In this document: in pieces, positions 8,569 to 59,346 of the stretch | Numbering within the stretch: position 1 is the first letter of the stretch | Layout of the letters: the number at the start of each line of letters is the position of its first letter | IMG/VR virus record: IMGVR_UViG_3300025030_000106 | Span: 1 to 62,897 of that record | DNA from: a virus | Taxonomy: Duplodnaviria > Caudoviricetes | DNA length: 62,897 nucleotides | Reading direction: 5' to 3' (one strand) | Position numbers and translations under genes: made by a program | Notes under the pieces: model-generated | The model's input: the letters and a program-made list of their open reading frames with translations, nothing else | Told to the model about the DNA's origin: nothing | The model's database searches: none

Positions 8569-9643
8569 GGCAGCTTTCCAGACTGCCGGATCTTGTTGGC
8601 TTTCTTCTTGGCCAGCTTGTAGACCCTGCGCCCGTCGCTGGCGACGATTTGTAACGTCCGTGGATGCCGGAACCTCTTAGGGTCGTCGACGTTGACGTTG
8701 ACGTCTCGGAGGGCCTTGCGCAGTTTCTTAATTGATTTCCCGCTCATCGCTTTGCCTCCTGCATCGCTTTCATAATCTTCAGCATCTCGCCAGCTTTCTT
8801 CATCCGTGCTTGGTTGAACGCCGACGTGATCATAAAGGTACACATATAGAGCCAGGCCGGTACCAAGATAAAGAGCCCCAACACAAAGGCCACGAATTCA
8901 TACCATTCCATTATTTGATCCTCACAGTTTTTGGGTCAGTGTACCTCCCGGCGTCGAGAAGATCTATGATCTCCCGAGCTTTGGTATACACAGGCTCAGG
9001 ATCAGACGTCAGCCCACGAACTCTGACCAGGACCTTTCCTCTTTTTGTCCCCTTCCCGCTGGACTTTTTCAAAATTGGGAAGACCCCAACAGAAAAAGTC
9101 TCCGAGTTAAAGGGCTCTTTGCCAGGCGTCCAGCTACCGTCAAACCCATGAAGAATCTTTTCCATACATCCGCCTCTCATATTTGGTTGGTTCAGGGATC
9201 CGGCTCAGGTTGTGATCCCGAGGCCGGCCTTTCAGGTTTCCCCAGTTTGATTTCATTTCCAGCTTGTCTTGGTACTCTTTCAGGTTATTCTCGACGAGCT
9301 TCCCGACGATCCACGTCCTGGGGTTGTCGGGCCCGTGCTTGTGCAGTCTCTTAGCAAATGACGGGACAGAGACCTGAAGCTTCTTAGCACAGTAAGCGTA
9401 TGTCTGGAGGCCCCACTCAGGGGTCTGTACCGTCCGGGTGGCCAGGGGTTCACGGGAACTATATTCTCGCAACTTGGTGTACCGATCCCAAAGCGGCCGG
9501 CCGTCGGTTACCCACCGGCACATCACCGGCCCGGTCACGCCGACAATATCAGCGGCAGCCTGCCGGGTTGTTTCGCCAGACCTTATCTGCTCTTCCAACG
9601 TGTTCAGGATTTCTTTTGTCAGCCTGCGATTCAGCTTCATCAC
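8559..9643 (-). other. Four small CDS: 8559-8747 basic protein, 8744-8911 TM protein (not in ORF track), 8911-9165 hypothetical, 9140-9643 HTH-like protein
   Basis: Overlapping, RBS-preceded ORFs; 9140-9643 has an HTH-like RQAAADIVGVTGPVMCRW segment. Confidence 0.55.
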
Positions 9644-9649
9644 CCCTCC

Positions 9650-10267
9650 TCACATCATCAAGGTTGCTCTTGCGATCCGGTCCGTCAATCGGAAGTCATA
9701 CCGCCGATCGGCACAGTTGGTAATTTCTTCTTCGTGGCTCACGATCAGGAACTGGAGGTCGAACTCTTTCGACAGCATGCGCAACATCTCCGCCGCGGCC
9801 GGCTGGAGGTCCTCAGACAGGTGGCGGAAGGGCTCGTCGAGCAGGATGAACGGCGCCGTCGAGGACAACAGCCAGTAGCTGATCCGCAAGGTGAAGGAAG
9901 CGACGTCGGCAGCACCGTGGCCGGCACTCTCCAGCGGGTCGTAATCCTCACCGCCGCGGGAGAACAATAGGTCGCACTCGGTAGAATTCCTGCGCTCAAC
10001 GAACTCCACCTTGAATTCGTAGGGGTCTGGGAACACTAGCGATAGCGCCTGCGTGACGATGTTCGAGATCTTGTATTTGAGCTGCTCCTGCGTCAGGGCA
10101 ACGGCCCTCTGGATCAACCCCCGGCAGTCAACGGCGAGCTTCTGCTGTTTCTCTGCGCTGACGAGCAGGCATTGCTGCGCGTCGGCCTGCTGCCGGAGAT
10201 CCTCGATCTTCCAAAGCTTCTTGTCGACCTTCTCCTTGAACTCGGCAAGTTTAGAGGAGTGCGGCAT
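9650..10267 (-). CDS. sbcC: SbcC/Rad50 C-terminal half (signature and Walker B)
   Basis: SAGHGAAD signature-like segment, ILLDEPF Walker B, IVSH H-loop. Confidence 0.85.
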   Translation of the reverse strand: MPHSSKLAEFKEKVDKKLWKIEDLRQQADAQQCLLVSAEKQQKLAVDCRGLIQRAVALTQEQLKYKISNIVTQALSLVFPDPYEFKVEFVERRNSTECDLLFSRGGEDYDPLESAGHGAADVASFTLRISYWLLSSTAPFILLDEPFRHLSEDLQPAAAEMLRMLSKEFDLQFLIVSHEEEITNCADRRYDFRLTDRIARATLMM

Positions 10268-10487
10268 ATCGCGTCTCCAGATCCTTGACGGCGATGTCGA
10301 TCTCGACGTCGAGCTTATCCAGTTCCTCATCCATCTTGGCAATAGCTTTGTCGGCCTCAGGCACAGTGTCATAGCCCAACGTCTTCAACTGGTCGAACGC
10401 CGACTCCAATTGGCCTTCGACCTTGGCCTTCTCCTTCTGCTTTTCTTCCAACACCGACTTCAACTTCTTCAGTTTCTCCAAGCTCAT
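10251..10487 (-). CDS. Small coiled-coil protein, possibly a middle piece of the split SbcC
   Basis: 78 aa, heptad pattern, between sbcD and the sbcC C-half. Confidence 0.6.
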   Translation of the reverse strand: MSLEKLKKLKSVLEEKQKEKAKVEGQLESAFDQLKTLGYDTVPEADKAIAKMDEELDKLDVEIDIAVKDLETRYAALL

Positions 10488-11963: not shown

Positions 11964-11986
11964 TCTCGTGTTCCTTTGTGTTGGGT

Positions 11987-12717: not shown

Positions 12718-13901
12718 TCGCAGCATCCTTCTGTAAAGTTATTACCACACACCGGGCAGACGCCGAGGTCGACTTTGAGGGCCTCATAGGCCTCTTCAGC
12801 ATCAACCAGAGCAAGCTCGGCAGCCTTCAATTTTCCCTGCCATTTATCAACAGCGACCAGGGCGCCACGCAGGGTGGATCTGCCGGCGGTGAGGTCGCGT
12901 TTCTTGATCTCGAAGCCGGCGACGTCGGGCATGACGTCAACGTCAGGCAGGACGTCGAGTTTCTCTTGAAGTTGGGCGATCCGTTGACGTGCATCAACAA
13001 GGTTCTTTCGCGCCAGTTCTACCACGGCACGAGTCTCACAAAGGTCAATCCCGACCTCAACGTCGGAGATACTGATCTCAGGGAATTTCTCAATAACCTG
13101 CTGCAAGACGTCAACCCGGTCAACGGCGTTCATCAGGGCAGTGCCCTGGGCAAAGAGATCATCACGACGTTGCTGTTGGGCGAGGATGTCTTCGATATAT
13201 GTCAATCCTGACATATCTGGAAACTGGTCCAGTTCAGAGCTAATGTCGGTGATAGTGCCGATGACCCCAATGAGACTCTCTTTTGTCGATGAGAGCCTAT
13301 CATAGGCTTCCTGCAGCCCAACCCCCTGGTCAACTAGTTTCTTCGCCTCAGCGACCCACTGCAGCCCGTCCAGCTGGTCGTTGATCCCAGTGATTGACAT
13401 CTTGATGACGTTGACGTTGCCGTCGGCGTCTCGCACAAGAGCATTTACGGTCTTTAACGACTCATCCATGATACTCAGGTCAGCAACCTCGTTCAGGCGC
13501 TTGGCCACATTCCCTCCGGTTTCATCCAAGAGAAAATAATGGGGATGCTGCCACTGGCAGTTGTCCAGAGTGACCCCATGGAACTTGCTGACCTCGGCAG
13601 GGACGTCGGCCTTGATCGCTTTGAAGACGTCGCCGTTGAACTGGTACTGGTTCACCTTTGGACCTCGCTCCCGGATCAGGACGTCGCCAGTGTCGTAGGT
13701 CAGGGTAACCCGGGTCGTGCCCTTGCGGTCCAGCATAAAGTTGCCCTTGGGCGCCCGGTTGAAGAATACCCACCGTAACGCCCGGACCAACGATGATTTC
13801 CCAGAGTCGCTAGAGCCAGTGATCAGAGTGATCGCGTCAAGCTCAAGCTCGGTGTGCTGATGGGCTTGAAAGTTCTCAAGCAGGATCTTGGTGAGTTTCA
13901 T
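12714..13901 (-). CDS. sbcC: SbcC/Rad50 N-terminal half (Walker A, coiled coil, terminal zinc hook)
   Basis: LENFQAH, GSSDSGKSS Walker A, ends CPVCG. Confidence 0.88.
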   Translation of the reverse strand: MKLTKILLENFQAHQHTELELDAITLITGSSDSGKSSLVRALRWVFFNRAPKGNFMLDRKGTTRVTLTYDTGDVLIRERGPKVNQYQFNGDVFKAIKADVPAEVSKFHGVTLDNCQWQHPHYFLLDETGGNVAKRLNEVADLSIMDESLKTVNALVRDADGNVNVIKMSITGINDQLDGLQWVAEAKKLVDQGVGLQEAYDRLSSTKESLIGVIGTITDISSELDQFPDMSGLTYIEDILAQQQRRDDLFAQGTALMNAVDRVDVLQQVIEKFPEISISDVEVGIDLCETRAVVELARKNLVDARQRIAQLQEKLDVLPDVDVMPDVAGFEIKKRDLTAGRSTLRGALVAVDKWQGKLKAAELALVDAEEAYEALKVDLGVCPVCGNNFTEGCCE

Positions 13902-18265: not shown

Positions 18266-18340
18266 TTGTTCCTCCATCCAAAGGCAAAGCTGGAGCCCCC
18301 GAGAGGGCTCCGTGACTCCGTCCACACATGGTGGATGAGC

Positions 18341-28913: not shown

Positions 28914-28922
28914 ACTTGGGCC

Positions 28923-32314: not shown

Positions 32315-32659
32315 TTACTGTACAGAAAAATTAAAATTCTGGTACACCTCCTTACATTGTGTGGCGCCAAAGAGTTTGGTGTCAAAAAAACCTGTGGGGC
32401 ATTGCAGGAATATCTTTTCTCCCTCCGAGGTAAGGACACTGCAGGTGCCATACCCATCCCCACCTGAATCTCCTGCACATGTAATCCTCTTCACTTTCAT
32501 GCCATTTTGAGAAATAAACATCTTGGCTGCCACCATCGCCCGCCGCTCGGTTGCCCCACGATTATTCAGCCCAACACCCCCGATAAGGCTGGCAAAGATG
32601 CCGACAACCGCAGCCACTAGCAGTACCTCAACTATTGTAAACCCTTTCTCATTCATCAC
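32315..32659 (-). CDS. Type IV pilin/pseudopilin-like protein
   Basis: NEKG-FTIVEVLLVAAVVGIFASL class III signal (G-1, F+1, E+5); four Cys in the globular part. Confidence 0.8.
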   Translation of the reverse strand: MMNEKGFTIVEVLLVAAVVGIFASLIGGVGLNNRGATERRAMVAAKMFISQNGMKVKRITCAGDSGGDGYGTCSVLTSEGEKIFLQCPTGFFDTKLFGATQCKEVYQNFNFSVQ

Positions 32660-33184: not shown

Positions 33185-33330
33185 GCTGATGTTACTGTGG
33201 TTTATCAAACTCATGAAGCTAATAACCCCTTCTGTTGATTTCCTGCTTCCTTGAAAGTAGTTTCGTTCCCAGGCAATTGCCCAAGAACCAGAGCTTCTCT
33301 CTCCACAGGCTTAACGTCCGGCAAACCCTG
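33185..33330 (-). ncRNA. Putative omegaRNA of tnpB copy B
   Basis: Same scaffold as copy A, ending near ATGAGTTTGA and followed by TAAACCACAGTAACATCAGCG; boundaries approximate. Confidence 0.55.
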
Positions 33331-34380: not shown

Positions 34381-34486
34381 GTTTCTGATTCCAGTATTTG
34401 CTTTTGCAGCTTGGGCATTTAGCCGGGCTTTTTGGCAACCTCGGGTACCACTGGTGACCACACCTGAGACACTTTAAAGTTTGCAT
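34340..34486 (-). CDS. Small zinc-ribbon protein overlapping the tnpB start
   Basis: AGGAGGTG RBS; MQTLKCLRCGHQWYPRLPKSPAKCPSCKSKYW. Confidence 0.7.
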   Translation of the reverse strand: MQTLKCLRCGHQWYPRLPKSPAKCPSCKSKYWNQKRAKSPQDKIKAKQ

Positions 34487-46877: not shown

Positions 46878-47460
46878 GAATGGCTCCAGAGAAGAAAGGG
46901 GTTATTAGATAATGATAGAATAGCACAGAGATAACAGAAATACTAGGTAAAATGTCACCCTACCAGGGCTTGGAAAATCTTTACTATATAAAAAAAAATT
47001 CTCTATGTACCCCTCGAATTTTTCCCTCGCGAAGGACTTTTTATAGTAGTGGTAGGGTAATAGTAATAAAGTAAAAATGTTAACCTATTGTTAATGGGGC
47101 ATTTTGAGGTTCAGAAATAGTTCTCTCGAGTTTGGCCAAAAAACTGACTTTTAGGCCCGATGCTCTGTCATTCCTGGCATAGTTTATTTTTTAGCTATTT
47201 TTGTGTGCATATGCTCAGAATGTTTTTTATAAAATACTATGTCATTTTTGACACACTTATTTTTTTGATTAAACTTTTGGGCCTGAAGCTCGACAGAAAT
47301 CTTTTACAAGGTTTATGAGTCTCTAGAAAACATTATGCGACATTGGAGAAGAATTTTTGGGACTATTTCAGGAAAGTGAAAAACATTATGCGACATTGTG
47401 GACGTTAACGTCGACGTCTTGAGGATGTTAGGCCGGCCCACTCGCCAAAAAATTTCTATG
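46878..47460. other. AT-rich non-coding region with direct and inverted repeats (candidate origin or control region)
   Basis: No ORF; AAAACATTATGCGACATTG at 47327-47345 and 47380-47398; A/T tracts. Confidence 0.4.
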
Positions 47461-47461
47461 C

Positions 47462-47597
47462 TTGACAGGATGAAAAAAAGACTGTAACGTCACGATTGAC
47501 GTTACAAAACACGAAAAAAGGGGCGCCCAATCGAGCACCCCTTTTTTTATTGTTGACAGGCTAGAAAAAAGTTTGTAACGTCACGATTGACGTTACA
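47462..47597. terminator. Three consecutive hairpins (two identical 24-bp palindromes around a bidirectional terminator)
   Basis: TGTAACGTCA-CGAT-TGACGTTACA at 47483-47506 and 47574-47597, each with a minus-strand T tract; AAAAAAGGGG...CCCCTTTTTTT between them. Confidence 0.7.
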
Positions 47598-47922
47598 AGA
47601 CACGTCGACGTTTATAGCAACTTCCATTCATCCAGACAACTCCAGGCGAATCATCAGCCGGCATGTTTTGGGCCCTTCCTGAACCTGTCCATTGGTATCT
47701 TGTTTGCTCCCTTTTCTGTGCCAGATATTCCTCACTCACTCCTATATAGTGGCGTAAAATTCCACCATGTTGACGTCGATACTCCTGACATTGTTCTTTT
47801 GATTTTCCCTCGAAGATTGTCACACCGGCCAGGTCAACGAACCATCTTTCTTTAGCTGGTTTCGGCTGTCTGACATCCTCATCCTTGAAGGGCCAATTTG
47901 TTCCCAGCAGATTCCATGTCAT
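47593..47922 (-). CDS. Hypothetical immediate-early protein
   Basis: AAGGAG RBS; 109 aa. Confidence 0.65.
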   Translation of the reverse strand: MTWNLLGTNWPFKDEDVRQPKPAKERWFVDLAGVTIFEGKSKEQCQEYRRQHGGILRHYIGVSEEYLAQKREQTRYQWTGSGRAQNMPADDSPGVVWMNGSCYKRRRVL

Positions 47923-47951: not shown

Positions 47952-48045
47952 GTTGACGTTGACGTTGACGTTGACGTTGACGTTGACGTTGACGTTGACG
48001 TTGACGTTGACGTTGACGTTGACGTTGACGTTGACGTTGACGTTG
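47952..48045. repeat. Perfect tandem array (GTTGAC)15 plus GTTG
   Basis: Read directly; intergenic; bracketed by CGAGC/GCTCG. Confidence 0.97.
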
Positions 48046-48074
48046 CTCGGTAGTTTAAAATTGCCTTGTTAGGT

Positions 48075-48197: not shown

Positions 48198-48368
48198 TTT
48201 TGTTCCTCCTAGGTAGTTTAAAACTACCGTCTTGCACACTTTGTGCTATTTGTTACTTCCCGCCTTGCGTTTGTGTTATCGGCATTTCCGATACTCCAAA
48301 CGCAAGGCGGGCAGGGTGAACAATCACCCTGCCCGCTCCCTCCTCTGAGGTAGTTTTAAACTACCCTG

Positions 48369-48979: not shown

Positions 48980-49404
48980 CTACTTGATTGATAACCCTTC
49001 TACCTTGTAGGTATCCCCATCAGCGGACTCGACAGGGTGGAGGGTAAACGCTACTGTTACCTTGTCGCCTATGGCGTAGTGTGCCTGGCTTGTTGCCCCC
49101 CATACCTCTGACCCTACCTGCAAGCACACCACATTTTTCGGGGCGTTCTCGATACAAGGTCGGACTGTGGCTGTTCCTGTTAACGTCATACCCTGTTGCA
49201 ATGATGCTATCATTACCGCTGTCAATAACAAGTTGCCCATGATTACACCCCTAATGTTAAATTATAGAAGGATTGATAGCCTAATGCAATTACCCGTGCC
49301 AAGTACTTTCCGACCAAAGGGCGTAACCAAACACGTATGTGTAATGGGTTTAGATAGTGGCGCACTTGGTCGGCGTTGGTAGTGTGATGGATTGATGTCG
49401 TCAT
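48980..49404 (-). other. Two small immediate-early CDS (48980-49240; 49243-49404, not in ORF track)
   Basis: First ORFs after the strong promoter; AAGGAG RBS before 49404. Confidence 0.5.
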
Positions 49405-49448
49405 GGCCTAGTGCTCCTTTGTTCTGATTGTTCTTCTCTCTTACTTAT

Positions 49449-49477
49449 AATATACGACATCGTTACCAAGATGTCAA
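49449..49477 (-). promoter_or_regulatory. Strong sigma70 early promoter
   Basis: TTGACA-N17-TATATT with AT-rich upstream tract. Confidence 0.8.
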
Positions 49478-49717
49478 CAAATAATTTGTTGTCGATAACT
49501 TTTTTTTCTGCTCTTTGTTATTGTATAGCTTAACGTTAAGACGTATACCGCCTACAATGTGGTAGCTCGCCCAGGGCGGCCCACGAGGTACCCCCAGAAA
49601 CCTGACAACTTTTTCTGCAGAATGTAGCATAAAATTACACCAAGCCCGACAGTAACGTCAACGTCCTCAAGACGTCGGGAGCAGGAGCAGGCAAGACGTT
49701 CCCAGACACAAGACGTC

Positions 49718-49747
49718 TTGACAAACGTCAATAGAAACGCCTATACT
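49718..49747 (+). promoter_or_regulatory. Sigma70-like promoter of terS (probably leaderless)
   Basis: TTGACA-N18-TATACT, ending 7 nt before the ATG; no SD. Confidence 0.65.
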
Positions 49748-49754
49748 GGGCAGT

Positions 49755-50057
49755 ATGAACGTCGACCTCAACGCTGAAATAAACGCACAATTGAAGCGCT
49801 GCAAGGACTTGGCTGATGACGCCACGGAAGACGGCGAGAGCCCTCTCAGTCAACGCGCCGCCGCCCTGACAACGCTCAATAACCTGCTCAAAGAGATCAC
49901 GAAGTCGCAGTTGGAAGTGATCAACATGTCACGGTTGCAAGCACTGGAACAGACACTGATTGACCTACTGCCCGAGTTTCTCTCAGACGACCAGACACAA
50001 GAGTTTATGGCGGAATATGAGCGCCGCCTGACCCTACTGGAACATAGGGATGAATGA
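49755..50057 (+). CDS. terS: Terminase small subunit (putative)
   Basis: Helical 100-aa ORF overlapping terL; assigned by position. Confidence 0.65.
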   Translation: MNVDLNAEINAQLKRCKDLADDATEDGESPLSQRAAALTTLNNLLKEITKSQLEVINMSRLQALEQTLIDLLPEFLSDDQTQEFMAEYERRLTLLEHRDE

Positions 50058-51801
50058 CCTTTACTCCAGGCATTTCACCCGTCTTTCAGCAGGCCTCTCT
50101 CGAACAAAGATCAGCCTTTCTGACTATATCACGCGCTACACCTACCTCGGCGTCAAGCGCTTTTCCTATGTCAACCACGAGTATCAGCCCTATATCATCA
50201 GCAAGATTAACGCCGACCCCGATATCAACCTTCTTCTCTACAAGTGCTCGCAGTTGGGCGTCTCAGAGGTGTTTCACCGGCTGATTCTGTCAATGATGGG
50301 TATTGAACCAGGCTTTTCCACACTCCTGGGCATGCCGTCACAGACTTTCTCTCAAGAGGTGATGAAAACAAGAATTTCTCAAATAGTGAGAAGTTCGAAA
50401 GTCCTGAGAGAACTCAGCGATCCACGAGTAGACTCAGCATCCGTCAAGCAATTCATCAACGGCTCTATCCTGTATGCCTTGGGCGCCGGCGAGCAGTCGG
50501 GCGAATCTTCCTTGATCAACCGCCCGATCAAATTGGTGTGTATCGACGAGTTGGACAGATGCTCGATGGATATCGTAACTGGTTTCCGTTCCCGGCAGAC
50601 GCATTCTGTCCACAAACCCCGCATCTACATCTCAACACCGACTTATGAGGGCCTGGGTATCGACGGCGAGAGTGAGGATGCTGAAATTCACAGGAATGTG
50701 GTCAAGTGCTGCCATTGCTCCCACCATTTCTTTCCTGATTACTATGAACACGTGTGCTTGCCCGGGTTTGACCAGCCTCTTGAGCTTCTCACCAAGGCCG
50801 ACGTCGACAGCAACGTCGCTATCAACCTTGACGAAGCGTATTTATTCTGCCCAAAGTGCTTAAAACAGCCGGATTTGAGCCCAAAACACCGTGAGTTCGT
50901 CATAGAAACAGCCCAAAAATCAACGATTGAGCGGAAAATTTGTATCAAACTGAGCCCTTTTGACGCACCCGGTTTCATCAAAACACCTGATTTAATCCGC
51001 TCAAGCTTTATTTATTCAGACAATAACGAGTTTCGCAACCAGGCATTGGGGCTGCCGGTCAAGGCTTCCGACAGTTCTATCGACAGAAACCTCCTCAGAT
51101 TTGAGAACGTCGAGGTCCCGAGCGACGCCGTGACTGTGGCCGGGCTTGATATGGGCAAGTTGTGTCACCTGATCCTGCTCTCGATCACCCCTAGCAACCA
51201 CATCATCGTGCACTCGCCGGAGATCATCCCCTTGGAATTGATCCCGGAAGAGATGCAGGACCTTTTCCATGGCCCTAGCAGCCGGCACATCGCCTCGTTG
51301 GTCGTTGATAGCCAGCCCTATACCGACACCGTGAACAAGTTGGTGACCTTGCATCCGCAGGTTTGGTCAGCGCTCTACTCCGTCCCCGTGCAGCCCAAAC
51401 CCGAACTCTATTGGTTGAAGACTGAAGAAGAACCGGAAGACGCCAACAACCCTTACAAGATCGCGAACAGGGTCGCGGACTACAAAGTGCGCCAGATCAC
51501 GATCAACAAAAACCCCTTTTTCGACTACACCGCAGGGCTGCTGCAGTCGGAGCAGCTCAAATTCAAGTCCGGACCCTATGACCTGCAGGTCTTGAACCAT
51601 GTTCTTGATATGCGCAGGATCAGGGACCACAGATACTCTGACATGCGGTACAAATGGGTGAAATCGAAAAAAGGCGCGGACCACTTCTTTCATGCGATCA
51701 ACTACGGGATTGCGGCATTTAAGCTCATAGACACCATCAATTCTACAGTTATCTTGCCCAGAGTCCTCCTCCATCGCATTAAAATGACCAATCAACTGTA
51801 A
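50050..51801 (+). CDS. terL: Terminase large subunit, lambda gpA-like
   Basis: KCSQLGVSE Walker A, CIDELD Walker B, ISTPT, CxHC/CPKC, GLDMG nuclease, DHFFHA. Confidence 0.92.
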   Translation: MNDLYSRHFTRLSAGLSRTKISLSDYITRYTYLGVKRFSYVNHEYQPYIISKINADPDINLLLYKCSQLGVSEVFHRLILSMMGIEPGFSTLLGMPSQTFSQEVMKTRISQIVRSSKVLRELSDPRVDSASVKQFINGSILYALGAGEQSGESSLINRPIKLVCIDELDRCSMDIVTGFRSRQTHSVHKPRIYISTPTYEGLGIDGESEDAEIHRNVVKCCHCSHHFFPDYYEHVCLPGFDQPLELLTKADVDSNVAINLDEAYLFCPKCLKQPDLSPKHREFVIETAQKSTIERKICIKLSPFDAPGFIKTPDLIRSSFIYSDNNEFRNQALGLPVKASDSSIDRNLLRFENVEVPSDAVTVAGLDMGKLCHLILLSITPSNHIIVHSPEIIPLELIPEEMQDLFHGPSSRHIASLVVDSQPYTDTVNKLVTLHPQVWSALYSVPVQPKPELYWLKTEEEPEDANNPYKIANRVADYKVRQITINKNPFFDYTAGLLQSEQLKFKSGPYDLQVLNHVLDMRRIRDHRYSDMRYKWVKSKKGADHFFHAINYGIAAFKLIDTINSTVILPRVLLHRIKMTNQL

Positions 51802-51839
51802 CACTCCCGGCAACACATCAATAAAAATCACTGCATCGC

Positions 51840-51868
51840 TTGACTTTTTACCTGCTTTCCTCTACACT
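51840..51868 (+). promoter_or_regulatory. Sigma70-like promoter upstream of the portal gene
   Basis: TTGACT-N17-TACACT. Confidence 0.55.
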
Positions 51869-51944
51869 TATCTCAGGACGTACTAGAGTACTTGACTTTT
51901 ACAGTACTTTAGACAGCAACTTCGGGAGAGAAAGAGACGACTAC

Positions 51945-53441
51945 GTGGCTTTGAATAACCCTTTCAGCGGGATGCTGACGTCGATCAAGAAAGTAAAGAC
52001 CAAAGGGCTGGCTCTTCCATCATATCTCCGTTCCGCAACGACCCGCAGTGGCGCCGACATCAGCAACACGACCCCTGATGTCACCAACATCGACCTCACT
52101 CAATATCGCAACCTCTCGACCAAGCTCGACGTCATCAAGTCGTTGTCGTATGCGTCACCGGATTGGTCGCAGGCGATCAATTCGTTGTTAAGATTTGCCA
52201 TCACCGACGCCTACCAGATCGTCGCTTACACCTTCGACGGCAAGGTCGACGTCAACGCCACGAACTACACGCAAGCACTGGCTGCACGGTTTGACTGTCT
52301 CCCTCCTGACTACGACGGTTTCTACACACAGACAGACCTGAGGTCAACATCCGAGTCTTTACTTCGCCAACTTGTCACCTACGGAGCTATGTCGAGTGAA
52401 CTGGTCCTCTCACAGGCCCGAGACGCCTCCCACATTCGGGCCATCTCCGTAAAAGATCTCAAGTTTGAGAATAAAGGCAACAGAGCGGTCCCGTATCTGC
52501 AGTTGAACACTGGTGGCGCCAACAATAAGCTGTCGCTCGACTCGCCGCTGTTCTTCTACACGTCGCTCGATCAGGATCTTGATGAGGCCTACCCGATATC
52601 CCCCATGACGTCGGCCGTACAGCCCGTGCTTGCTAACGAGGAGTTCAAAAATGACCTTCGCCGGGCGTTCCGCAAAGCAGCGCTGCCTCGAATCAAGGCC
52701 CTGATCAAGACCAAAGAATTCCAGGAATCTCTGCCGGCGGCCGTCCGTTACGACGAGACCAAGCTCAAGGCCTACATGGACAACTTGATCACGGATCTCG
52801 AAACCAAACTCAACGGCTTGAACCCTGAAGACGCCTTGGTCTTTTTCGACATCTTGGACATCGAGCACCATTCCGCCGGGAACATCAGCTTTCACGAGAA
52901 TGTGAAAGAGTACGGGAACCTCATCAACGCCAACGTTGCTGCTGGCGTCAAGACCCTGCCCAGCGTCCTCGGCCGAGGTGAGTCTCAAAACGTGGCTTCA
53001 ACGGAATCAATGCTGTACCTGCGCTATGTCGAGGGCATGCAGGAAAAACTGAACACCCATTACTCAAAAAAATTCACCCTGGCAGCTCGTCTCTCCGGGT
53101 TTGACGTCTACTGCAACTTCAAATATGCGGACCCGGAACTTCGGCCGAAGTCGGAACTGGCCACGTTCGAGTCCATGAAACAAAGCACGGTCCTGGAGCG
53201 GCTCAGTCTCGGGTTCGTTTCTGACGAAGAAGCTTCGGTTCAACTCACTGGCCGGCTGCCATCAGGGGAGTTTACGCCACTGTCGGGGACCGGGTTCTTC
53301 GAGGCGAAAGCGCCGGTGGAAAACCCCTACTCCAACACCTCCGTCTCCGGTGAGGGCGTGACCGCGACCAAAAACCAAAAAGACACCAAATCGACCGCAC
53401 CCACCGGCACCAAGCGCACCGGCGGGCAGCAGGGGAGATAG
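51945..53441 (+). CDS. Portal protein
   Basis: About 500 aa between terL and the protease; GTG start chosen manually. Confidence 0.8.
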   Translation: MALNNPFSGMLTSIKKVKTKGLALPSYLRSATTRSGADISNTTPDVTNIDLTQYRNLSTKLDVIKSLSYASPDWSQAINSLLRFAITDAYQIVAYTFDGKVDVNATNYTQALAARFDCLPPDYDGFYTQTDLRSTSESLLRQLVTYGAMSSELVLSQARDASHIRAISVKDLKFENKGNRAVPYLQLNTGGANNKLSLDSPLFFYTSLDQDLDEAYPISPMTSAVQPVLANEEFKNDLRRAFRKAALPRIKALIKTKEFQESLPAAVRYDETKLKAYMDNLITDLETKLNGLNPEDALVFFDILDIEHHSAGNISFHENVKEYGNLINANVAAGVKTLPSVLGRGESQNVASTESMLYLRYVEGMQEKLNTHYSKKFTLAARLSGFDVYCNFKYADPELRPKSELATFESMKQSTVLERLSLGFVSDEEASVQLTGRLPSGEFTPLSGTGFFEAKAPVENPYSNTSVSGEGVTATKNQKDTKSTAPTGTKRTGGQQGR

Positions 53442-53442
53442 C

Positions 53443-54894
53443 ATGAACAAAAACCACTTACGCCGCAAGATCTGCCTGATTTCGGAAGGTTCGGAACAGG
53501 AACTGCTCAGCCTAGAGAACCGGATCTTCGAGTTGCAAGGGGACAGTGGGGCCCTTGCGGCGTACTCTCTTCAGCAAGATGAGGCCGAGGAGAAGAAAGA
53601 ACGGCCCTATCAAGTCCACGAGGGGGTCGCGATCATCGAGATGAAGGGGCCGCTCGTCGCCAGGACGACCTGGATGTCGCGGTTCATGGGGGCCATGTCC
53701 TACGAAGACCTCCGCGCCCAGTTCGTTGAAGCGGTCATGGACGAGGAAGTGCAGAGCATCCTTATCGACGCCGACACCCCGGGCGGGCAAGTGAATGGGC
53801 TCGGAGAATTGTCCGGGCTCTTAGACAAGATCAAAGGCATCAAGCCCATCGACACCTACGTCGCTGGCGGACTTCTGTCCGCGGGTTACTGGGTGGGGGT
53901 GACGGCTCGGAAAATCTACGCATCCGAGACAGCTTTCGTCGGCTCGATCGGCGTCGTGATCACCCACGCGTCCTATGAAAAAGCCTACGAGAAGGAAGGG
54001 ATCAAGATCACCAAGATCAAGTCTGGTGAGAAGAAGCAAGTAGGCTCTTCCGAGAAAGACCTCTCTGCCGAGGACAAAGCATACCTGCAGGCCCAGGTCG
54101 ACGACTTGTTTGGCTTGTTCAAGAAACATGTGCTCGCACATCGGGCACAGGTCAATCCCGACACCTTTGACGGGTCGGAGTTTGTAGCGGATAAAGCCTT
54201 GGCAATGGGGCTTGTGGATAGAGTTATGACGTTTGACGACGTCCTGGCTCATATTGTTACTCAACGTGAATCCAATGGAGGTTCAACTATTATGAAGAAA
54301 GGTTTTACAGCAGAACAGGTAGCGGCGGCAGCAGCCTCCGGTGCCAAGCTGGAGGATCTCGAGCTTGCCGGCGGAGGAGCGGATCCCGACGCCGAGGCTC
54401 TGGCTGCCAAGGAGAAGGCTGAAGCCGACGCCAAGGTCGCTGCTGACGCTGAGGCCAAAGCTAAGGCCGATGCTGAGGCCGCGGCAGCCGCTGCAGGCAC
54501 TGAGGCTCCACCGGCAAAGGCTGAGGGTGAGACAGTATCTGCCTATCTCGAGTCCCAGCTCGCGAAGTCGGCCGACAAGATCGCTGATCTGACGGTCGAA
54601 AACAAGGAACTCAAAGCCAAACAGGCCCGGACTGAAGAGGTCCTGCCCAAGCTGAAGACCATCGTGTCCGAAGCCATCAATCGGATGCACGTCGCCCTGG
54701 GCATGACCAGGACTGATATGGCAGCCATGGATGAGGGCGCCCTGATCAAGCAGTATGAAGCGACTTGCGAGCAGTTCAGCAAGACGTTCAAGACCGGGGG
54801 CCTGACCGCAGGTGCGGATATGCCAGACACCGAGAAGAACAAGGCGAAGATCACCAACATCGACGAAGCTCGCTGCAAGTCGGTTGGTTTGTAA
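53443..54894 (+). CDS. S49 prohead protease with C-terminal scaffold (nested start at 54292)
   Basis: DTPGG, SAGYW, VGSIGV and SGEKK motifs; GGAGG-preceded internal ATG as in lambda C/Nu3. Confidence 0.9.
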   Translation: MNKNHLRRKICLISEGSEQELLSLENRIFELQGDSGALAAYSLQQDEAEEKKERPYQVHEGVAIIEMKGPLVARTTWMSRFMGAMSYEDLRAQFVEAVMDEEVQSILIDADTPGGQVNGLGELSGLLDKIKGIKPIDTYVAGGLLSAGYWVGVTARKIYASETAFVGSIGVVITHASYEKAYEKEGIKITKIKSGEKKQVGSSEKDLSAEDKAYLQAQVDDLFGLFKKHVLAHRAQVNPDTFDGSEFVADKALAMGLVDRVMTFDDVLAHIVTQRESNGGSTIMKKGFTAEQVAAAAASGAKLEDLELAGGGADPDAEALAAKEKAEADAKVAADAEAKAKADAEAAAAAAGTEAPPAKAEGETVSAYLESQLAKSADKIADLTVENKELKAKQARTEEVLPKLKTIVSEAINRMHVALGMTRTDMAAMDEGALIKQYEATCEQFSKTFKTGGLTAGADMPDTEKNKAKITNIDEARCKSVGL

Positions 54895-54927
54895 ATAAAA
54901 CACGAAATTTCCAGGAGGAATTGAATC

Positions 54928-55374
54928 ATGTCAAAGTTTACTTTCAAGGCAATGGTCGCTGAAGGCGACCTGACAACCGCCAAACTCGGAACCGGCACTG
55001 TGGCGGCTTCCGGCGACCTCAACGGTAACGACATCGGCAAGCCGGTCAAGCTGACCGCGGCCGACACCTACGGCCTGTGCTCCAATGGTGACCAGATCGA
55101 CGGTTTCCTGTATTCCGTGGAGTCCTACACCGCTGATGGCTATGCTGTCGGCACCGTACAGCTGAGCGGCCGGCGCCGGGTGGAGCTGGGCGGCAACAGC
55201 GCCGTCGGCACCCTCGTGCAGTCTGGCACCAACGCGGCGCGGACCGTGGCGCCGACCAATGGCCTGGGCGTTGTCGTCGAGCACACCCATGTGACAGCGA
55301 CCCGCAAACTGTGGCGTGTAATCTCCGGGACTGGCCTGTCCGGCGACACTACCTGCATCATCGAGAAACAGTAA
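54928..55374 (+). CDS. Head decoration/cement protein
   Basis: DIGKPVKL...GDQIDG; between protease and capsid. Confidence 0.65.
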   Translation: MSKFTFKAMVAEGDLTTAKLGTGTVAASGDLNGNDIGKPVKLTAADTYGLCSNGDQIDGFLYSVESYTADGYAVGTVQLSGRRRVELGGNSAVGTLVQSGTNAARTVAPTNGLGVVVEHTHVTATRKLWRVISGTGLSGDTTCIIEKQ

Positions 55375-55404
55375 CTCATCGAGCCTATTGGAGGGCAAAC
55401 AAAA

Positions 55405-56604
55405 ATGGATAAGACAAAGGTATATTTCACCGATGCAGCAGGGCTTCGCCAGGAGGCGTCTTTTGGTCCCAGCCTGTACCGGGCCGCCATGGACAAGAAC
55501 ATGACGGTTCGGCAGTACATCAACAGCGAATTCCCGACCGCGGCCGACGCCAAGCACGACACCTTCGTGCAGATGTGCGCCTCGGCGGGCCTGCAGTTTA
55601 AGCAGGACAAGACCCTGGGCGTCAACAGCGCCCCGCTGCGGGTTATTCTTGACGGCCCGGTCAGCCCTGATGCCGCCGGCATCACCGGCAACACCAACCC
55701 GGTTCAGTCCCGCATCCTGTTCCCGGCAGCGATCCTCGAGTACATCGAGAACGCGATGGCCGTCGACCGCACCTCGGTCATCTCGGCCTTTGACCAGACT
55801 GTGGCCCTGACCACCACCGTGCCCAATGCCCGCATCGAGCGCCCGGTGATCAGCTATGCTGGTAAAGACGGCCCGCAGGACTCCCGTTCCCAGGTCATCT
55901 CTCAGTTGACCAAGCCGCCGGCGATGTTGTCCATCACCGCGTCCGAGGTCACCAAGAAGATCCCGACCCGGTCGATCGGCCTTGAGGTCTCTGATGAGGC
56001 CCTGCAGTCGACCACCCTGGATCTGGTTGGGCTGGCCCTGCGCCGGCAGACGGAGGTAGAGGGCTATGCTATGGCCGGCGAGGCGCTCATCGATATGCTG
56101 AGCGGCGACGTTGACAACGGGCAGTCTGCCCTGTCTCAGGTAAAAGCTGACACGCTGGATTCTACCATCGTGGCGGCCGGGGCGCTGACTCAGTCTGCAT
56201 GGGTGCAGTGGCTCTACACCAACCTGCAGTCCCGCCAGATCGACTGGGTCTTCACCGACCTGGCCGGCGCCCTGGCCATCGAGAACCGGACCGGCAAGCC
56301 GGTTATCACCGGGGATGATCCCAACAGTCCGCGGATCGACACCATCTTCAACATTGCCTTCCCGCAGTTGGTGAAGAATGTGAAGATGTTCATCGTGCCC
56401 TCTGACTGGGGTTGGACGGCCAACACCATCATGGGCATTCAGAGCGCCTACGCCATTCACAAGTTTGTGAATTCCTCGGCCGAGTATTCTGCCATGGAGC
56501 GATTCGCTCTGCGGAAGGGTCAGGGCCTGCGCTTTGACTTCGGCAATATGTACGAGCGTATGTTCGACGGCGCATTCTCCGTGCTGAGCTTGACGTTGAC
56601 CTAA
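55405..56604 (+). CDS. Major capsid protein
   Basis: 399 aa, position in head module, strong codon bias, downstream hairpin. Confidence 0.85.
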   Translation: MDKTKVYFTDAAGLRQEASFGPSLYRAAMDKNMTVRQYINSEFPTAADAKHDTFVQMCASAGLQFKQDKTLGVNSAPLRVILDGPVSPDAAGITGNTNPVQSRILFPAAILEYIENAMAVDRTSVISAFDQTVALTTTVPNARIERPVISYAGKDGPQDSRSQVISQLTKPPAMLSITASEVTKKIPTRSIGLEVSDEALQSTTLDLVGLALRRQTEVEGYAMAGEALIDMLSGDVDNGQSALSQVKADTLDSTIVAAGALTQSAWVQWLYTNLQSRQIDWVFTDLAGALAIENRTGKPVITGDDPNSPRIDTIFNIAFPQLVKNVKMFIVPSDWGWTANTIMGIQSAYAIHKFVNSSAEYSAMERFALRKGQGLRFDFGNMYERMFDGAFSVLSLTLT

Positions 56605-56619
56605 ACTTACACCCCGAGA

Positions 56620-56646
56620 GCGGGCCCGACGTCGGGCCCGCCTTTC
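56620..56646 (+). terminator. Palindromic hairpin after the capsid gene
   Basis: GCGGGCCCGACGTCGGGCCCGC perfect 22-bp palindrome with a short T tract. Confidence 0.6.
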
Positions 56647-56659
56647 TCAAGGAGTCATT

Positions 56660-56881
56660 ATGGCAAGGTTGAAAAAAGAAGACTCGGAAACCTCCGAAGC
56701 GGCCCCGGAGGAGAAGGTGGAGAAGGTCGAGAAGAAGGTCCGGCGCTTTGTCGGCAAAAGGTTCGCTTATTACCACCCCTTCCAGAACAAGGCCATCCCT
56801 TTGGGTGGCGACGGGGTTGTGTTGGAGATGGATAGCTGGCTGGACTGTCAGGTCAAGGCCGGCTATATCGTTGAAGTTTAG
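56660..56881 (+). CDS. Small hypothetical protein
   Basis: AAGGAG RBS; follows capsid gene. Confidence 0.6.
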   Translation: MARLKKEDSETSEAAPEEKVEKVEKKVRRFVGKRFAYYHPFQNKAIPLGGDGVVLEMDSWLDCQVKAGYIVEV

Positions 56882-56896
56882 GTTGAGGGACTCCCT

Positions 56897-57574
56897 GTGA
56901 ATATCACGACCTATACCAGCTATGCGGAAGTCAGGGCAGTTCTGGGCGTTTCTGCCTTGGAACTCACTGACACCCAGCTGGCTCTTGGTATTTATGGGGA
57001 GTTTCTTTATCAAGAACTGTCTTCGATCAGTGGCATCTTGGCGCCGGACACGGTGTCCAGAAACCTGATCGAGCAGTTTACTTTTCTCTCAGCAGTATCT
57101 TCCGTAAGCCCGAGCAGCAGCCCAAGCAGCAGTGTGAGCAACAGCCCGAGCAGTTCAGCAAGCCCAAGTGCTTCTGTTTCGGCGAGCCCGAGCGAGTCGA
57201 ACAGCACCAGCCCGAGTGGCTCAGTCTCATCGAGTCCGAGTGCTTCTGCTTCAACTGCACCGGTTGCACAGCCGACGGCAAATCAAAGCCTGCTGCTGAG
57301 CTACATCAGGACCTTTGCCACCTATACAGTGGCGGCGAACGTCTCCGGGTCGATATCACTGCTGGCGCCGAAGACGATCTCCGACGGCAAGGCACTGACG
57401 ACACGGTTCTCTTCCGAGCGTACTTTCGAGGCAGTAGTTGCTGATGTCAATTATCGAAAGTCCGATCTGAAGCGAAAGATCCAAGATTTGTTCGGAACTA
57501 CGCTGGCAGACAAGTCCTATCTGGGTGTGGTTGCTCCGGCGATTGACGTTGTGACCAACGCGGCTTACGAGTAG
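56897..57574 (+). CDS. Head-tail adaptor with Ser/Pro-rich insertion
   Basis: YTSYAEVRAVLGV N-terminus; position; about 50-aa S/P insert. Confidence 0.65.
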   Translation: MNITTYTSYAEVRAVLGVSALELTDTQLALGIYGEFLYQELSSISGILAPDTVSRNLIEQFTFLSAVSSVSPSSSPSSSVSNSPSSSASPSASVSASPSESNSTSPSGSVSSSPSASASTAPVAQPTANQSLLLSYIRTFATYTVAANVSGSISLLAPKTISDGKALTTRFSSERTFEAVVADVNYRKSDLKRKIQDLFGTTLADKSYLGVVAPAIDVVTNAAYE

Positions 57575-57581
57575 GGTTGCC

Positions 57582-58415
57582 ATGGACTTGCGAGACGCCG
57601 CCAAGTTCTTTGACAAAGAGATTTTCAAGGACTATTACAGCTCCTCGACGTTTTACGGGCAGGTTGGCCCGTTCGCTGAGAGCACCAGGTCAGGGCCGGC
57701 AACACCGCGGCGGGTCTTGTCGGTGGCGCCTGACGTTTCTATCCCGGCCCGGAAAGTGGTCAAGATGGTCAGTTCCGGCCGGAATTACATCGTCGGGATC
57801 CTCAACGAGGACTACTGGTTTAATGGGGTGATCCGGAAGAAGTATCCGATGATCCCAGTGGATACGCAGGTACGACTGGGCAATGTCGGAACGCACCTCG
57901 CCGGGTCCGGGTACTCATCAGACGTCTTCATGTTCCTGACATATGTCCGCCGGGTGCCACTGGAGGAGGAGTCCTCGCTGTTTTACGCCGGGTATGAGAT
58001 CCACTTCTCGGCATATGAAACTGTTGCCAACGACAGCATCATCAAGTTTGGCAACGACTATTTCCGGGTAAAGGTGGCAGCGTCAATCGACGGCGCCGGC
58101 TTCGGGATGTGCGAGGCGGTGAAACTGGAGTCGCCGATGACGACGGTGACCTACACGAAGAAGGGCACGGTTTACGATCCGGCGACGGACACGCACGGAT
58201 CAACAGTGCTCGCGGGGGTAGCAGCCTTCATCGAGCCGACGAGGTTCAACTTCCTGTTCACTTACCCGGCGTTTGAGAAGGTCGAGCCAGGCGACAAGAC
58301 GGTCTCAGTGCTGAAGACAGCTGTGAACGCGGCTAAGGCTGGGGACACAGTTGATGCACGAAATGTTTTGGCAGTACGGGATGCTTCGACGTACTGGGTT
58401 CTTCACTGCAGGTAA
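57582..58415 (+). CDS. Head closure/neck protein (putative)
   Basis: Position; YDPATD motif. Confidence 0.55.
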   Translation: MDLRDAAKFFDKEIFKDYYSSSTFYGQVGPFAESTRSGPATPRRVLSVAPDVSIPARKVVKMVSSGRNYIVGILNEDYWFNGVIRKKYPMIPVDTQVRLGNVGTHLAGSGYSSDVFMFLTYVRRVPLEEESSLFYAGYEIHFSAYETVANDSIIKFGNDYFRVKVAASIDGAGFGMCEAVKLESPMTTVTYTKKGTVYDPATDTHGSTVLAGVAAFIEPTRFNFLFTYPAFEKVEPGDKTVSVLKTAVNAAKAGDTVDARNVLAVRDASTYWVLHCR

Positions 58416-58420
58416 GGGCT

Positions 58421-58945
58421 ATGGCTGGAGTCTTTCTCACCATCAACACAGATTTTAACGCTCAGGTAAAGCGTGAGATCCGGGAAATGGAACTCAAGCT
58501 GGGCCGGGTCTTTTCTGGCATTGTTGAGGAGGCCTTTGTCAATCTTGTGCTGGAGACGCCGCAGTATTCAGGAACGATGGCGGCATCGTGGAATATGACA
58601 GTGAACAGGGCCAGTTTCCGAGTTTCCGGAAATTTTCCTTTTCCGGAAAATCCCTATCAGAAGGGGGATCTGCCGGCAGTGATGGAAGCTCTGGGGAAGG
58701 CACAAGGGAAGTCAAAGTCGTTCAAAGACCGGTTCGAGGCCAAGGGCTGGACGATTGAAGTGGCCAATGGAGTTGACTACGCCTCGAATGTGAACGACGG
58801 AGACATCAAGCTCAGATCAGAGGTCGGGCACAGCCCGGGGTTTGTGGAGCAGTTTATGATGCGGGTGCAGGGCGCCGTGGCTTATTCTGATTCTGACTGG
58901 AACTACTATGCGAATACTGACTTTCTCGGGATAGGTGCAGCATGA
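58421..58945 (+). CDS. HK97 gp10-like tail completion protein
   Basis: TPQYSG.MAASW, N.V.YA..V..G. Confidence 0.7.
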   Translation: MAGVFLTINTDFNAQVKREIREMELKLGRVFSGIVEEAFVNLVLETPQYSGTMAASWNMTVNRASFRVSGNFPFPENPYQKGDLPAVMEALGKAQGKSKSFKDRFEAKGWTIEVANGVDYASNVNDGDIKLRSEVGHSPGFVEQFMMRVQGAVAYSDSDWNYYANTDFLGIGAA

Positions 58946-59346
58946 CGTTTGAAGAGTTGAGAGAGACGATTATGGCGGCCTTCCAAGCTGCGCACGATAC
59001 GTCGTACCCGACGACTCTAGTGGACTATCCGAACCGGCCCAAGGTCGACGTCGAGACTCAGGTTAATCCTTGGGTCAGGGTCGAGCTGGCGATCAATAAC
59101 CAGAAGCAGTTGTGCCTGGGCAGTGATTTCACCCGGGTGAGCGGGTGGTTGTATATTGTGACGAATGTTCAAACTGGGGAGGGCACGAGGTGGCAGACCC
59201 AGTATACGGATTTTTTAGACACCAATTTCTCGCTGAAGACGATCAATGAGATCCTTTTCAGGGAGCTTGTCCCATTGCCAGGGGTGAGTTATCCGGCTTG
59301 GCACACGGTTCGGAATGTGCTGCCATTTACTTTTGAAAAATATTAA
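58942..59346 (+). CDS. Tail terminator protein
   Basis: YPN...PWVR...G.L...V..G.G; directly before the tail tube. Confidence 0.7.
   Translation: MTFEELRETIMAAFQAAHDTSYPTTLVDYPNRPKVDVETQVNPWVRVELAINNQKQLCLGSDFTRVSGWLYIVTNVQTGEGTRWQTQYTDFLDTNFSLKTINEILFRELVPLPGVSYPAWHTVRNVLPFTFEKY

Follow-up and report, generated by a model that had tools for sequence, protein, structure and literature searches.

The pentamer ACGTC in the core genes and terminase-flanking repeats of an uncultured groundwater phage

The genome IMGVR_UViG_3300025030_000106, a virus of the Caudoviricetes recorded in IMG/VR, had been described in an earlier note as carrying an apparent genome-wide excess of a periodic GTYRAC/RACGTY motif, also inside its genes. 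The question that this raises is whether the motif is a signal of the DNA itself, and what would read it, or a consequence of the codons and proteins in which it lies. The window analyzed here is the entire record (62,897 bp, linear; CheckV completeness estimate 78%), and the coding set for the tests consists of 103 called open reading frames (ORFs), 90% of the window. Codon-aware counting places the excess in a non-palindromic pentamer, ACGTC, which is dispersed through the core genes and also forms direct-repeat arrays just upstream of the small ORF that overlaps the start of the large terminase gene (TerL). With moderate confidence we read ACGTC as a DNA word recognized by some protein of this phage clade, the arrays being a docking site and the dispersed copies a diffuse bias; most probably it is a docking signal for a protein, of a type already known, and not a new genome-wide code.

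Relatives were obtained by TerL searches of IMG/VR, which returned three contigs (G001, G002 and G003), the same three that a TerL alignment scan gave. G001 and G002 have identical match scores and look like one phage (G2 in what follows), with 80% nucleotide identity to the window across 32 kb; G003 (G3) is 16.5 kb long, with a TerL identity of 73%. The gene order is like that of Lana/SHOU24-type siphoviruses, and the nearest cultured phages have only 23–31% protein identity to the window (in TerL, PolA and capsid); a nucleotide search of phage records with the window gave no match. The sequencing runs that contain the window sequence are groundwater metagenomes.

The enriched word and its codon-aware excess

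The eight motif stretches first listed all read exactly as quoted, at correct coordinates. Over the whole window GTYRAC occurs 144 times, RACGTY 200 times, GACGTC 81 times and GTCGAC 34 times (GTTGAC plus GTCAAC, 100; AACGTC plus GACGTT, 106), and by inspection ~15 GTYRAC and ~15 RACGTY matches stem from one tandem array at 47952–48044. GACGTC is the most over-represented 6-bp palindrome, with a zero-order expectation of 16.7 and an observed/expected ratio (O/E) of 4.9. The main null consisted of 400 third-position shuffles in which protein sequence, codon usage and every dinucleotide count are preserved; two further nulls used synonymous-codon shuffles within genes (300) and codon permutations (300). 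Under the main null, RACGTY in ORFs stands at 166 against 116.1 (z 8.1, reached by 0 of 400 shuffles), GACGTC at 77 against 42.8 (z 7.1), the pentamer on either strand (ACGTC or GACGT) at 277 against 194.9 (z 9.0), and 9-mer chains at 64 against 31.7 (z 8.5). The 77 coding copies of GACGTC likewise exceed the synonymous-codon null (34.3, z 8.5) and the codon-permutation null (25.3, z 11.1). The GACGTC excess is present in all three frames (51/7/19 against 30.0/3.2/9.6), so that a single-frame codon effect is ruled out; the excess that the earlier note had suspected is thus real, and it is a DNA-level signal rather than a codon artifact. The motif family as first drawn stands only in part: RACGTY and GACGTC are strong, but GTYRAC is weaker (115 against 93.5, z 3.9, reached by 1 of 400 shuffles), GTCGAC (SalI) shows no significant excess in ORFs (31 against 26.2), and GTTAAC (the HincII subset) lies under expectation.

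In an unbiased k-mer scan ACGTC heads the 5-mers, and ACGTCG and GACGTC head the 6-mers. The codon pair ACG-TCG has 18 copies against 3.2 expected from codon usage. Enrichment within the NACGTN set is confined to GACGTC (1.80-fold) and AACGTC/GACGTT (1.3-fold), and both ACGTG and ACGTA are under-represented. The bases on either side of ACGT vary independently of each other: the RACGTY (166), mixed (76) and YACGTR (8) hexamers equal p^2, 2pq and q^2 with p = 0.816, and independent pentamer halves predict 76.7 copies of GACGTC (250 x 0.554^2), against the 77 observed. The order-4 (maximal-order) Markov O/E of GACGTC is 0.95, and palindromic 8-mer extensions are at expectation in the window (25 against 25.6) and in G2 (16 against 22.9). 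The elementary enriched unit is the non-palindromic pentamer ACGTC, on either strand; the GACGTC palindrome and the RAC-GTY chains are therefore overlaps of ACGTC pentamers on the two strands.

Two processes that could act on the palindrome itself were rejected. Perfecting of palindromes by template switching finds no trace in the 8-mer extensions or in the total of 6-bp palindromes (935 against 981 random), and a very-short-patch (VSP) repair or deamination signature is absent, the T-neighbors of GACGTC (GATGTC/GACATC) being undepleted (O/E 1.00). As separate observations, the 7-mer AAGACGT occurs 33 times, counting both strands, against ~6.5 from composition, and ACGTCTTG is the most enriched coding 8-mer by ratio to expectation (11 against 1.8). 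Five copies lie in 49538–49713.

The excess divides the window into two parts:

5853–61812, both strands: core genome (lysis/late, replication/early and head genes), with dispersed ACGTC/GACGTC excess in three frames and on both strands
187–5830, + strand: distal tail module, motif-poor (0 GACGTC, 0 RACGTY; ACGTC or GACGT 5 against 3.4 in the null)

In the core genes the pentamer stands at 272 against 191.7 (z 9.4) and GACGTC at 77 against 41.9 (z 7.8), values that 0 of 200 shuffles reach, and the zero-order O/E of GACGTC is 5.7 in 6001–49300 and 3.95 in 49301–61800. The scarcity first noticed in the initial 5 kb is borne out, with one RACGTY and no GACGTC in 1–6000 and an ACGT O/E of 0.35. 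The codon usage of the tail module is also unlike the rest (GAT 58% against 37%, GTA 24% against 10%), the tail genes of G2, which include orthologs of the window's (33–78% identity), are equally motif-poor, and tetranucleotide usage correlates less between tail modules and core (r 0.5–0.85) than within the core (0.83–0.97). This tetranucleotide difference points to a separate history of the tail modules. "Genome-wide" is accordingly too strong a term: the core genes are enriched, but the tail modules and ordinary spacers are not. Noncoding ACGTC in the core amounts to 22 copies against 10.2 expected, 16 of them in the control regions 46878–47592 and 49241–49754. Within the core, motif density per gene varies with protein and codon make-up, from 2 in the capsid gene and 4 in TerL to 20 in the Rad50-like gene and 28 in PolA.

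The word is clustered on a short scale only. Adjacent RACGTY copies lie 6 or 12 nt apart, never 9 or 15, and family hexamers with another within 24 nt number 144 against 79.5 (z 7.7), whereas isolated ones show no excess (137 against 129.7); isolated GACGTC keeps a residual excess (38–54 against 26–34). A regular lattice was rejected, the long-range spacing of GACGTC having a coefficient of variation (CV) of 0.93 against 0.98 for random placement, so that the "periodic" character first reported holds for neighboring RACGTY copies and not over long range. No strand polarity of the Chi type was found, non-palindromic copies being about equal on both strands in most segments; the sole skewed segment, 33–47.3 kb (7 against 22, p 0.008), follows the coding strand. 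Three coding clusters illustrate the pattern:

8685–8705, - strand: in-frame coding chain GTCGACGTTGACGTTGACGTC, identical at every base in G2
12921–12956, - strand: coding mini-cluster in the Rad50-like gene, with RACGTY gaps of 12, 6 and 12 nt
36232–36249, - strand: coding motif chain GTTGACGTTGACGTCAAC, in frame 0

The pattern at 12921–12956 is retained in G2 through different point substitutions.

Comparison with the relatives shows that the excess is specific to the phage lineage, common to three related IMG/VR contigs and not to two distant cultured relatives. Among 2080 hexamers GACGTC ranks 2 in the window, 1 in G2 and 8 in G3, against 434 in Lana and 1412 in SHOU24, and only 1 of 51 unrelated bacterial loci has an O/E above 2. 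In the G2 core the codon-aware excess recurs (ACGTC 200 against 152.3, z 7.1; GACGTC 52 against 35.9, z 4.0), and the 25-kb tail region of G2 has none (33 against 32). In the DNA that aligns between window and G2, 26 GACGTC sites are shared, 25 are found only in the window and 19 only in G2. Conservation (26 of 51) nevertheless exceeds the hexamer average of 31% (p 0.002; rank 21 of 333 words); where neither residue has changed, 19 of 25 GAC-GTC pairs persist, against 331 of 752 matched pairs (p 0.002), and GAC is kept before GTC in 29 of 30 cases against 224 of 289 otherwise (p 0.009). Because sites turn over yet conservation somewhat exceeds these controls, there is a standing pressure for the word, but there are no fixed sites. 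Slippage was rejected as the origin of the coding chains: at 0 of 27 aligned chain loci does the window differ from G2 by an indel of a hexamer unit, and only point substitutions are seen.

Direct-repeat arrays before TerL and the left inverted cluster

In all three genomes ACGTC reaches its highest or nearly highest density per 300 nt immediately ahead of the TerL-overlapping small ORF. In the window this locus consists of the following:

49651–49766, + strand: ACGTC direct-repeat cluster, with six ACGTC (49655, 49661, 49672, 49713, 49725 and 49759) and ACGTT at 49696
49718–49747, + strand: sigma-70-like promoter TTGACA-18-TATACT, agreeing with the consensus at 11 of 12 positions and ending 7 nt ahead of the ATG at 49755
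49755–50057, + strand: 100-aa all-helical protein, putative small terminase (TerS) by position only, its ORF overlapping the TerL start
50050–51801, + strand: large terminase, gpA-type ATPase (PF05876, E 2.3e-15)

The dense patch that had been reported around the putative terS promoter is present here. Three of its repeats read CAAGACGTY, it extends across the rightward promoter and codons 2–3 of the pre-TerL gene, and it contains 10 pentamer matches per 300 nt against a mean of 1.51 (Poisson 4e-6). The corresponding array of G2, the top 300-nt window of that contig, has (ACGTCA)x4 and two more copies before the ATG and one at codons 2–3, thus 7 in total. The array of G3 is far larger, with 23 ACGTC in ~300 nt, all on the ORF strand, at gaps of 6, 11, 12, 17 and 18, and with 34 pentamer matches against a mean of 1.6 (Poisson 6e-33); its copies are set in nested tandem repeats with periods of 6, 11, 17, 35 and 46, and it ends ~45 nt before a TTGACT-N18-TACAAT pair and an ATG. 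The arrays of window, G2 and G3 are therefore built of 6, 7 and 23 uniformly oriented direct repeats, spaced across the clade by 6, 11–12 and 17–18 bp. As in pac- and cosB-type regions, repeated short motifs adjoin or overlap the putative terS (an identity given by position) beside TerL in three genomes. The region that precedes the last genes of Lana shows neither a comparable iteron array nor a small protein of similar kind.

The 100-aa protein is conserved (83% in G2, 65% in G3). It has no PHROG match and no credible Pfam match (only CCDC32, E 0.0063, 17 bits against a cut-off of 27), and its AF2 model is of low confidence, showing four helices (pLDDT 69, pTM 0.36). Scans of window proteins against Pfam or PHROG in eight sets of ten, in which most early genes were blank, found no helix-turn-helix (HTH) or ribbon-helix-helix (RHH) protein and no modification enzyme. 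It was also observed that in the window (49718–49757) and in G3 (L069 ~1290–1330) the -10 hexamer lies 7 nt before the putative terS ATG; from this sequence the late operon may start with a leaderless mRNA.

To the left of this array lies a second cluster:

47401–47429, no strand assigned: chain GACGTTAACGTCGACGTC plus CTTGAGG, part of the left inverted cluster
47482–47507, - strand: hairpin TGTAACGTCA-N4-TGACGTTACA, followed on the - strand by a T-run, terminator-like
47573–47598, - strand: second copy of hairpin TGTAACGTCA-N4-TGACGTTACA, overlapping the last codons and stop of ORF 47593–47922 (-)
47952–48044, - strand: perfect (GTTGAC)15.5 array of 93 bp, (AACGTC)n on the - strand, in the 5' leader of ORF 47593–47922 (-)

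Because 47412–47429 is 94% complementary to 49660–49677, the left and right clusters are inverted copies, 1.7–2.3 kb apart. The long array at 47952–48044, which was absent from the first list of motif stretches, has the repeat unit found upstream of the putative terS in inverted orientation, 1.7 kb to its left, and is missing at the homologous spot in G2. Independent Logan contigs from four groundwater runs enter it by ~30 nt from either side and none cross it, so that its number of units is assembly-based.

The two palindromes that had been noticed near 47.5 kb do contain the motif, at 47482–47507 and 47573–47598, and with their T-runs on the - strand both look like terminators of ORF 47593–47922. 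On the + strand the first overlaps a promoter-like TTGACA-N17-TAACGT pair. A 61-nt unit occurs twice (85% identical) in 47453–47604, with a GC-rich bidirectional terminator-like hairpin between the copies at 47514–47547; since each copy has TTGACA-N17-TAACGT on the + strand, a short + strand transcript or an antisense RNA to ORF 47593–47922 is conceivable. The same noncoding region, 46878–47592, contains an exact 19-nt direct repeat, AAAACATTATGCGACATTG, at 47327–47345 and 47380–47398, 53 nt apart. Farther right, the palindrome GGTAGTTTAAAACTACC and its variants occur in three copies (48048–48066, 48212–48228 and 48349–48365) ahead of small - strand genes; G2 retains one of them at the corresponding position, and the palindrome may be an early promoter or operator element.

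Similar arrays were sought throughout IMG/VR. (GTTGAC)5 is found in 4 unrelated contigs, and (ACGTCA)3ACGTC in 31 stretches, of which 2 belong to the relatives described above and 4 to the (GTTGAC)5 contigs. Four others that were checked (L163, L164, L174 and L157) lack this TerL and carry the (ACGTCA)3ACGTC array with 0.8–2.2 GACGTC per kb; GC content, measured on L163, L164 and L174, is 60–64%.

Candidate roles and rival explanations

In the reading of ACGTC as a word recognized by a protein of the clade, the arrays would be the docking site of a phage protein, most likely a pac/cosB-like packaging-recognition site read by the small terminase, or else a late-promoter control site; the packaging role is preferred because the architecture matches known terminase recognition regions. 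The option of a TerS or DNA-binding-protein site, one of those first proposed, gains support from the same-orientation arrays before TerL in three genomes, the identity of TerS being positional. The dispersed coding copies are probably not individually functional, because about half of them differ between genomes that are 80% identical. They would instead reflect a diffuse lineage-wide pressure for ACGTC and for 6/12-bp mini-clusters, caused either by weak selection for low-affinity secondary sites or by a context-dependent substitution bias; the tail modules would escape this pressure through their separate history. Because the top coding word is the array unit and the mini-clusters share the 6/12-bp spacing, the data suggest one reader that links arrays and dispersed copies, a link to which a compositional signature is a strong rival.

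Known systems offer partial parallels. In the account of SPP1 pac excerpted from PMC4737164, the gene preceding TerL has direct repeats across its promoter and its first part. Like SPP1/SF6 pac, the ACGTC repeats span a promoter and codons 2–3 of the pre-TerL gene in three genomes; unlike it, the repeat is only 5–6 bp long, in up to 23 copies at 6/11/17-bp spacing, the putative TerS is a 100-aa all-helical protein with no HTH detected, and the terminase is gpA-type. Enrichment of such a word across core genes has to our knowledge not been reported for SPP1, a point on which no literature search was made. In lambda cosB, as excerpted from PMC4669245, three sites for TerS (gpNu1), R3, R2 and R1, lie in mixed orientation immediately upstream of the TerS gene Nu1, and the present locus resembles it in having several repeats immediately upstream of a (putative) TerS gene and a gpA-family large terminase (PF05876). 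It differs from cosB in its many 5–6-bp units, in that no cosN-like element was identified, and in showing no sequence similarity. The lambda R sites are three elements of ~16 bp with an IHF bend. The iteron arrays of omega (pSM19035) and of ParR/parC (R1) are read by RHH/partition proteins and consist of 5–11-bp units, direct or inverted, with helical phasing and promoter overlap; the many short, helically phased, promoter-overlapping units found here are like them, and no RHH, ParR or ParB-like protein was recognized among the scanned window proteins, nor were partition genes seen.

Several results weigh against a common reader. The dispersed excess is modest, 1.3–1.9-fold in codon-aware terms against 2.5–4.9-fold at zero order. 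When the same null was calibrated on cultured relatives, the top words of Lana reached z 8.1 (GATCA, 1.27-fold) and z 7.8 (GCTGA), with hexamers up to z 5.8 in Lana and at most z 4.5 in SHOU24; on that scale the window gives z 8.5 for ACGTC (1.43-fold) and z 8.0–9.4 for its hexamers (1.8–1.9-fold). The dispersed excess is thus at the upper end of ordinary phage context biases and not beyond it. The tail genes of both window and G2 lack the ACGTC excess, the intergenic spacers outside the two control regions hold 6 ACGTC in ~4.7 kb (no excess), and the coding DNA of G3 is only weakly enriched (51 against 42.8, z 2.2; GACGTC 10 against 9.7). Of the 10 pairs spaced by 12 nt in coding DNA, 8 fall in frame 0, where a two-residue periodicity of the protein could contribute; retention of preferred codons alone predicts 58% conservation of GAC-GTC against the 76% seen (p 0.05). 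Unrelated viral contigs of 60–64% GC have (ACGTCA)n arrays too, at 0.8–1.1 GACGTC per kb. No ACGTC-reading protein was identified, the 100-aa protein being without a credible family or confident fold. The arrays overlap promoters, so that a transcription regulator fits equally well, and they might also form a replication origin that the primase-helicase reads.

The rival to be taken most seriously, possible although somewhat unlikely in our estimate, is that the word is purely a compositional signature, produced by a context-dependent mutation or repair bias or by a codon-context preference of the phage-host system, and that the arrays are slippage products or ordinary promoter-region repeats without a shared reader. 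An effect size near Lana's top context biases agrees with this, as do the bias of other words (CCCGG, GATCA, TCAA), the free turnover of sites (26 shared, 25 and 19 private), the random long-range spacing and lack of overall strand polarity, the gene-by-gene dependence of motif density on protein and codon make-up, the difference of the tail modules in general tetranucleotide signature, and the absence of the 15.5-unit array from G2. However, a compositional bias does not readily explain why the same single word of 512 both tops the scan and builds the pre-terS array in three genomes, or why ordinary spacers show no excess; the G3 copies are 11-bp phased and uniformly oriented within longer nested repeats, which is not simple hexamer slippage, and since 0 of 27 aligned chain loci carry a repeat-unit indel relative to G2, slippage applies to the long array only. 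It is quite improbable that the phage primase-helicase reads the arrays as iterons of a replication origin, with the dispersed copies as priming or loading sites. The two inverted clusters, 1.7–2.3 kb apart within the control region of the divergent early and late genes, would function in the manner of P4 ori and crr, and an 893-aa protein at 19928–22609 matches PHROG DNA-primase families and DUF5906; yet what the array adjoins and overlaps in G2 and G3 is the putative terS promoter and start rather than an AT-rich unwinding region, and only one cluster was seen in the contig DNA examined of these two genomes.

The earlier note had also proposed an iterated palindrome like HIP1 and a modification target, and neither is supported. 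HIP1 (GCGATCGC), one of the highly iterated palindromes of cyanobacteria, is 15–300-fold over-represented and tied to cognate methyltransferases. By the excerpts of PMC5861425 and PMC4390886 it resembles the present word in being short, over-represented within genes whatever the frame, specific to a lineage and conserved to some degree among relatives; the present word differs in its 1.3–1.9-fold codon-aware excess, in being a non-palindromic pentamer, and in that no methyltransferase was found in the contig (78% complete). That GACGTC is made or kept by methyltransferase-linked repair, or selected as a palindrome, is consistent with its rank as top over-represented 6-bp palindrome (O/E 4.9) and with its above-average conservation (26 of 51 against 31%, p 0.002), which is only marginally higher than retention of preferred codons would give, but the hexamer count equals the product of its pentamer halves with no palindromic extension (Markov O/E 0.95; 8-mers 25 against 25.6), the 1.8-fold codon-aware excess compares with 15–300-fold for HIP1 (PMC5861425, in excerpt), T-neighbors are not depleted (GATGTC/GACATC O/E 1.00), and the methyltransferase families PF00145, PF01555 and PF02086 have no match in the contig, the control genomes being positive. 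A HIP1-type palindrome is thereby already largely refuted, and we consider it very improbable. Highly unlikely, too, is a by-product of restriction avoidance (of YACGTR, CACGTG and TACGTA) or of frequent Asp/Asn-Val dipeptides that push ACGT to RACGTY, even though YACGTR is depleted (8 against 17.8–19.9), many 6-bp palindromes are nearly absent (GAGCTC 1 against 16.7; CGTACG and CGCGCG 0), and DV and NV dipeptides are ~1.25-fold over expectation. The mixed class is depleted as well and the flanks are independent, which places the pressure on each pentamer and not on the double-wrong hexamer; total ACGT in ORFs rises (250 against 225 under the main null), and the excess stays with the protein fixed and in frames 1 and 2, as with ACG-TCG above. 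Frame and flank analyses thus already largely refute this by-product explanation.

A bolder version of the common reader, which we regard as unlikely, would make ACGTC a genome-wide "self" word: the packaging or replication protein that nucleates on the arrays would also read hundreds of low-affinity 6/12-bp mini-clusters in the vertically inherited core genes and tell its own DNA from the host's, and selection would be strong enough to act on codon choice in three frames and to extend to protein sequence; the word would be the equivalent, in a phage, of Chi- or HIP-type words. For the docking-site reading, no new kind of system is revealed, with an effect size near the upper end of ordinary phage word biases. 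If the arrays are a packaging or late-control site, they would identify the word that is recognized in an uncultured lineage of groundwater phages, and as the control-region proteins have no known family, the ACGTC repeats would offer a concrete handle for binding assays. The dispersed excess shows, in codon-aware terms, how far a lineage-specific word bias reaches in a phage, and mosaic modules such as the tail genes can be distinguished by it.

Other features of the window

The genes run rightward from 49.7 kb (small ORF, gpA-type TerL, portal-sized ORF, S49 protease, capsid, tube), with distal tail and late genes at 0.2–8.6 kb, and leftward in a block from 8.6 to 49.2 kb that includes PolA, primase-helicase, SNF2 helicase, proteins like SbcCD and RuvC, and numerous unknown ones. 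Both ends of the contig lie within copies of a TnpB element, and for this reason it lacks the tape-measure region. The hairpin that had been noted at the capsid gene, with a central motif, is present:

56621–56642, + strand: hairpin GCGGGCCCG-ACGT-CGGGCCCGC, just after the major capsid gene, terminator-like

Three pieces of TnpB (IS605 OrfB) were found, at 33211–34461 (-), 61817–62897 (+, cut by the window end) and 3–241. Two of the copies have 85% protein identity, and the two ends of the window share 96% identity over 169 nt; the assembly therefore broke inside an IS copy. The insertion at 33.2–34.5 kb is absent from G2. The TnpB genes of the window carry 8–11 ACGTC per kb, and their closest metagenome relative (66% identity) shows no excess. 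The TnpB relatives do not lead to a host, the best identity being 44% in genome contigs and 66%, full-length, in metagenome contigs; of 53 TnpB-bearing metagenome loci of at least 3 kb, 0 are ACGTC-rich (maximum O/E 1.46, median 0.31). Searches of the window for tRNA and Rfam families gave no match. At 32315–32659 (-), in the early region, lies a 114-aa protein with a prokaryotic N-terminal methylation (type IV pilin-like) motif.

Many 6-bp palindromes, and CTAG (32 against 244), are strongly avoided throughout the window. GAGCTC occurs once against 16.7 expected, GTGCAC, GCGCGC, ATGCAT, ACTAGT, TACGTA, CCTAGG and GCTAGC once each, and CGTACG and CGCGCG not at all; in the tape-measure region of G2, GAGCTC is not avoided (4 against 3). 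Other palindromes are over-used 2–3-fold (GCCGGC, CCCGGG, TGATCA and CTGCAG), CCCGGG also in codon-aware terms (43 against 24.4, z 5.8), and a 12-mer palindrome, CCCGGGCCCGGG, occurs in two copies, at 14014 and 27107.

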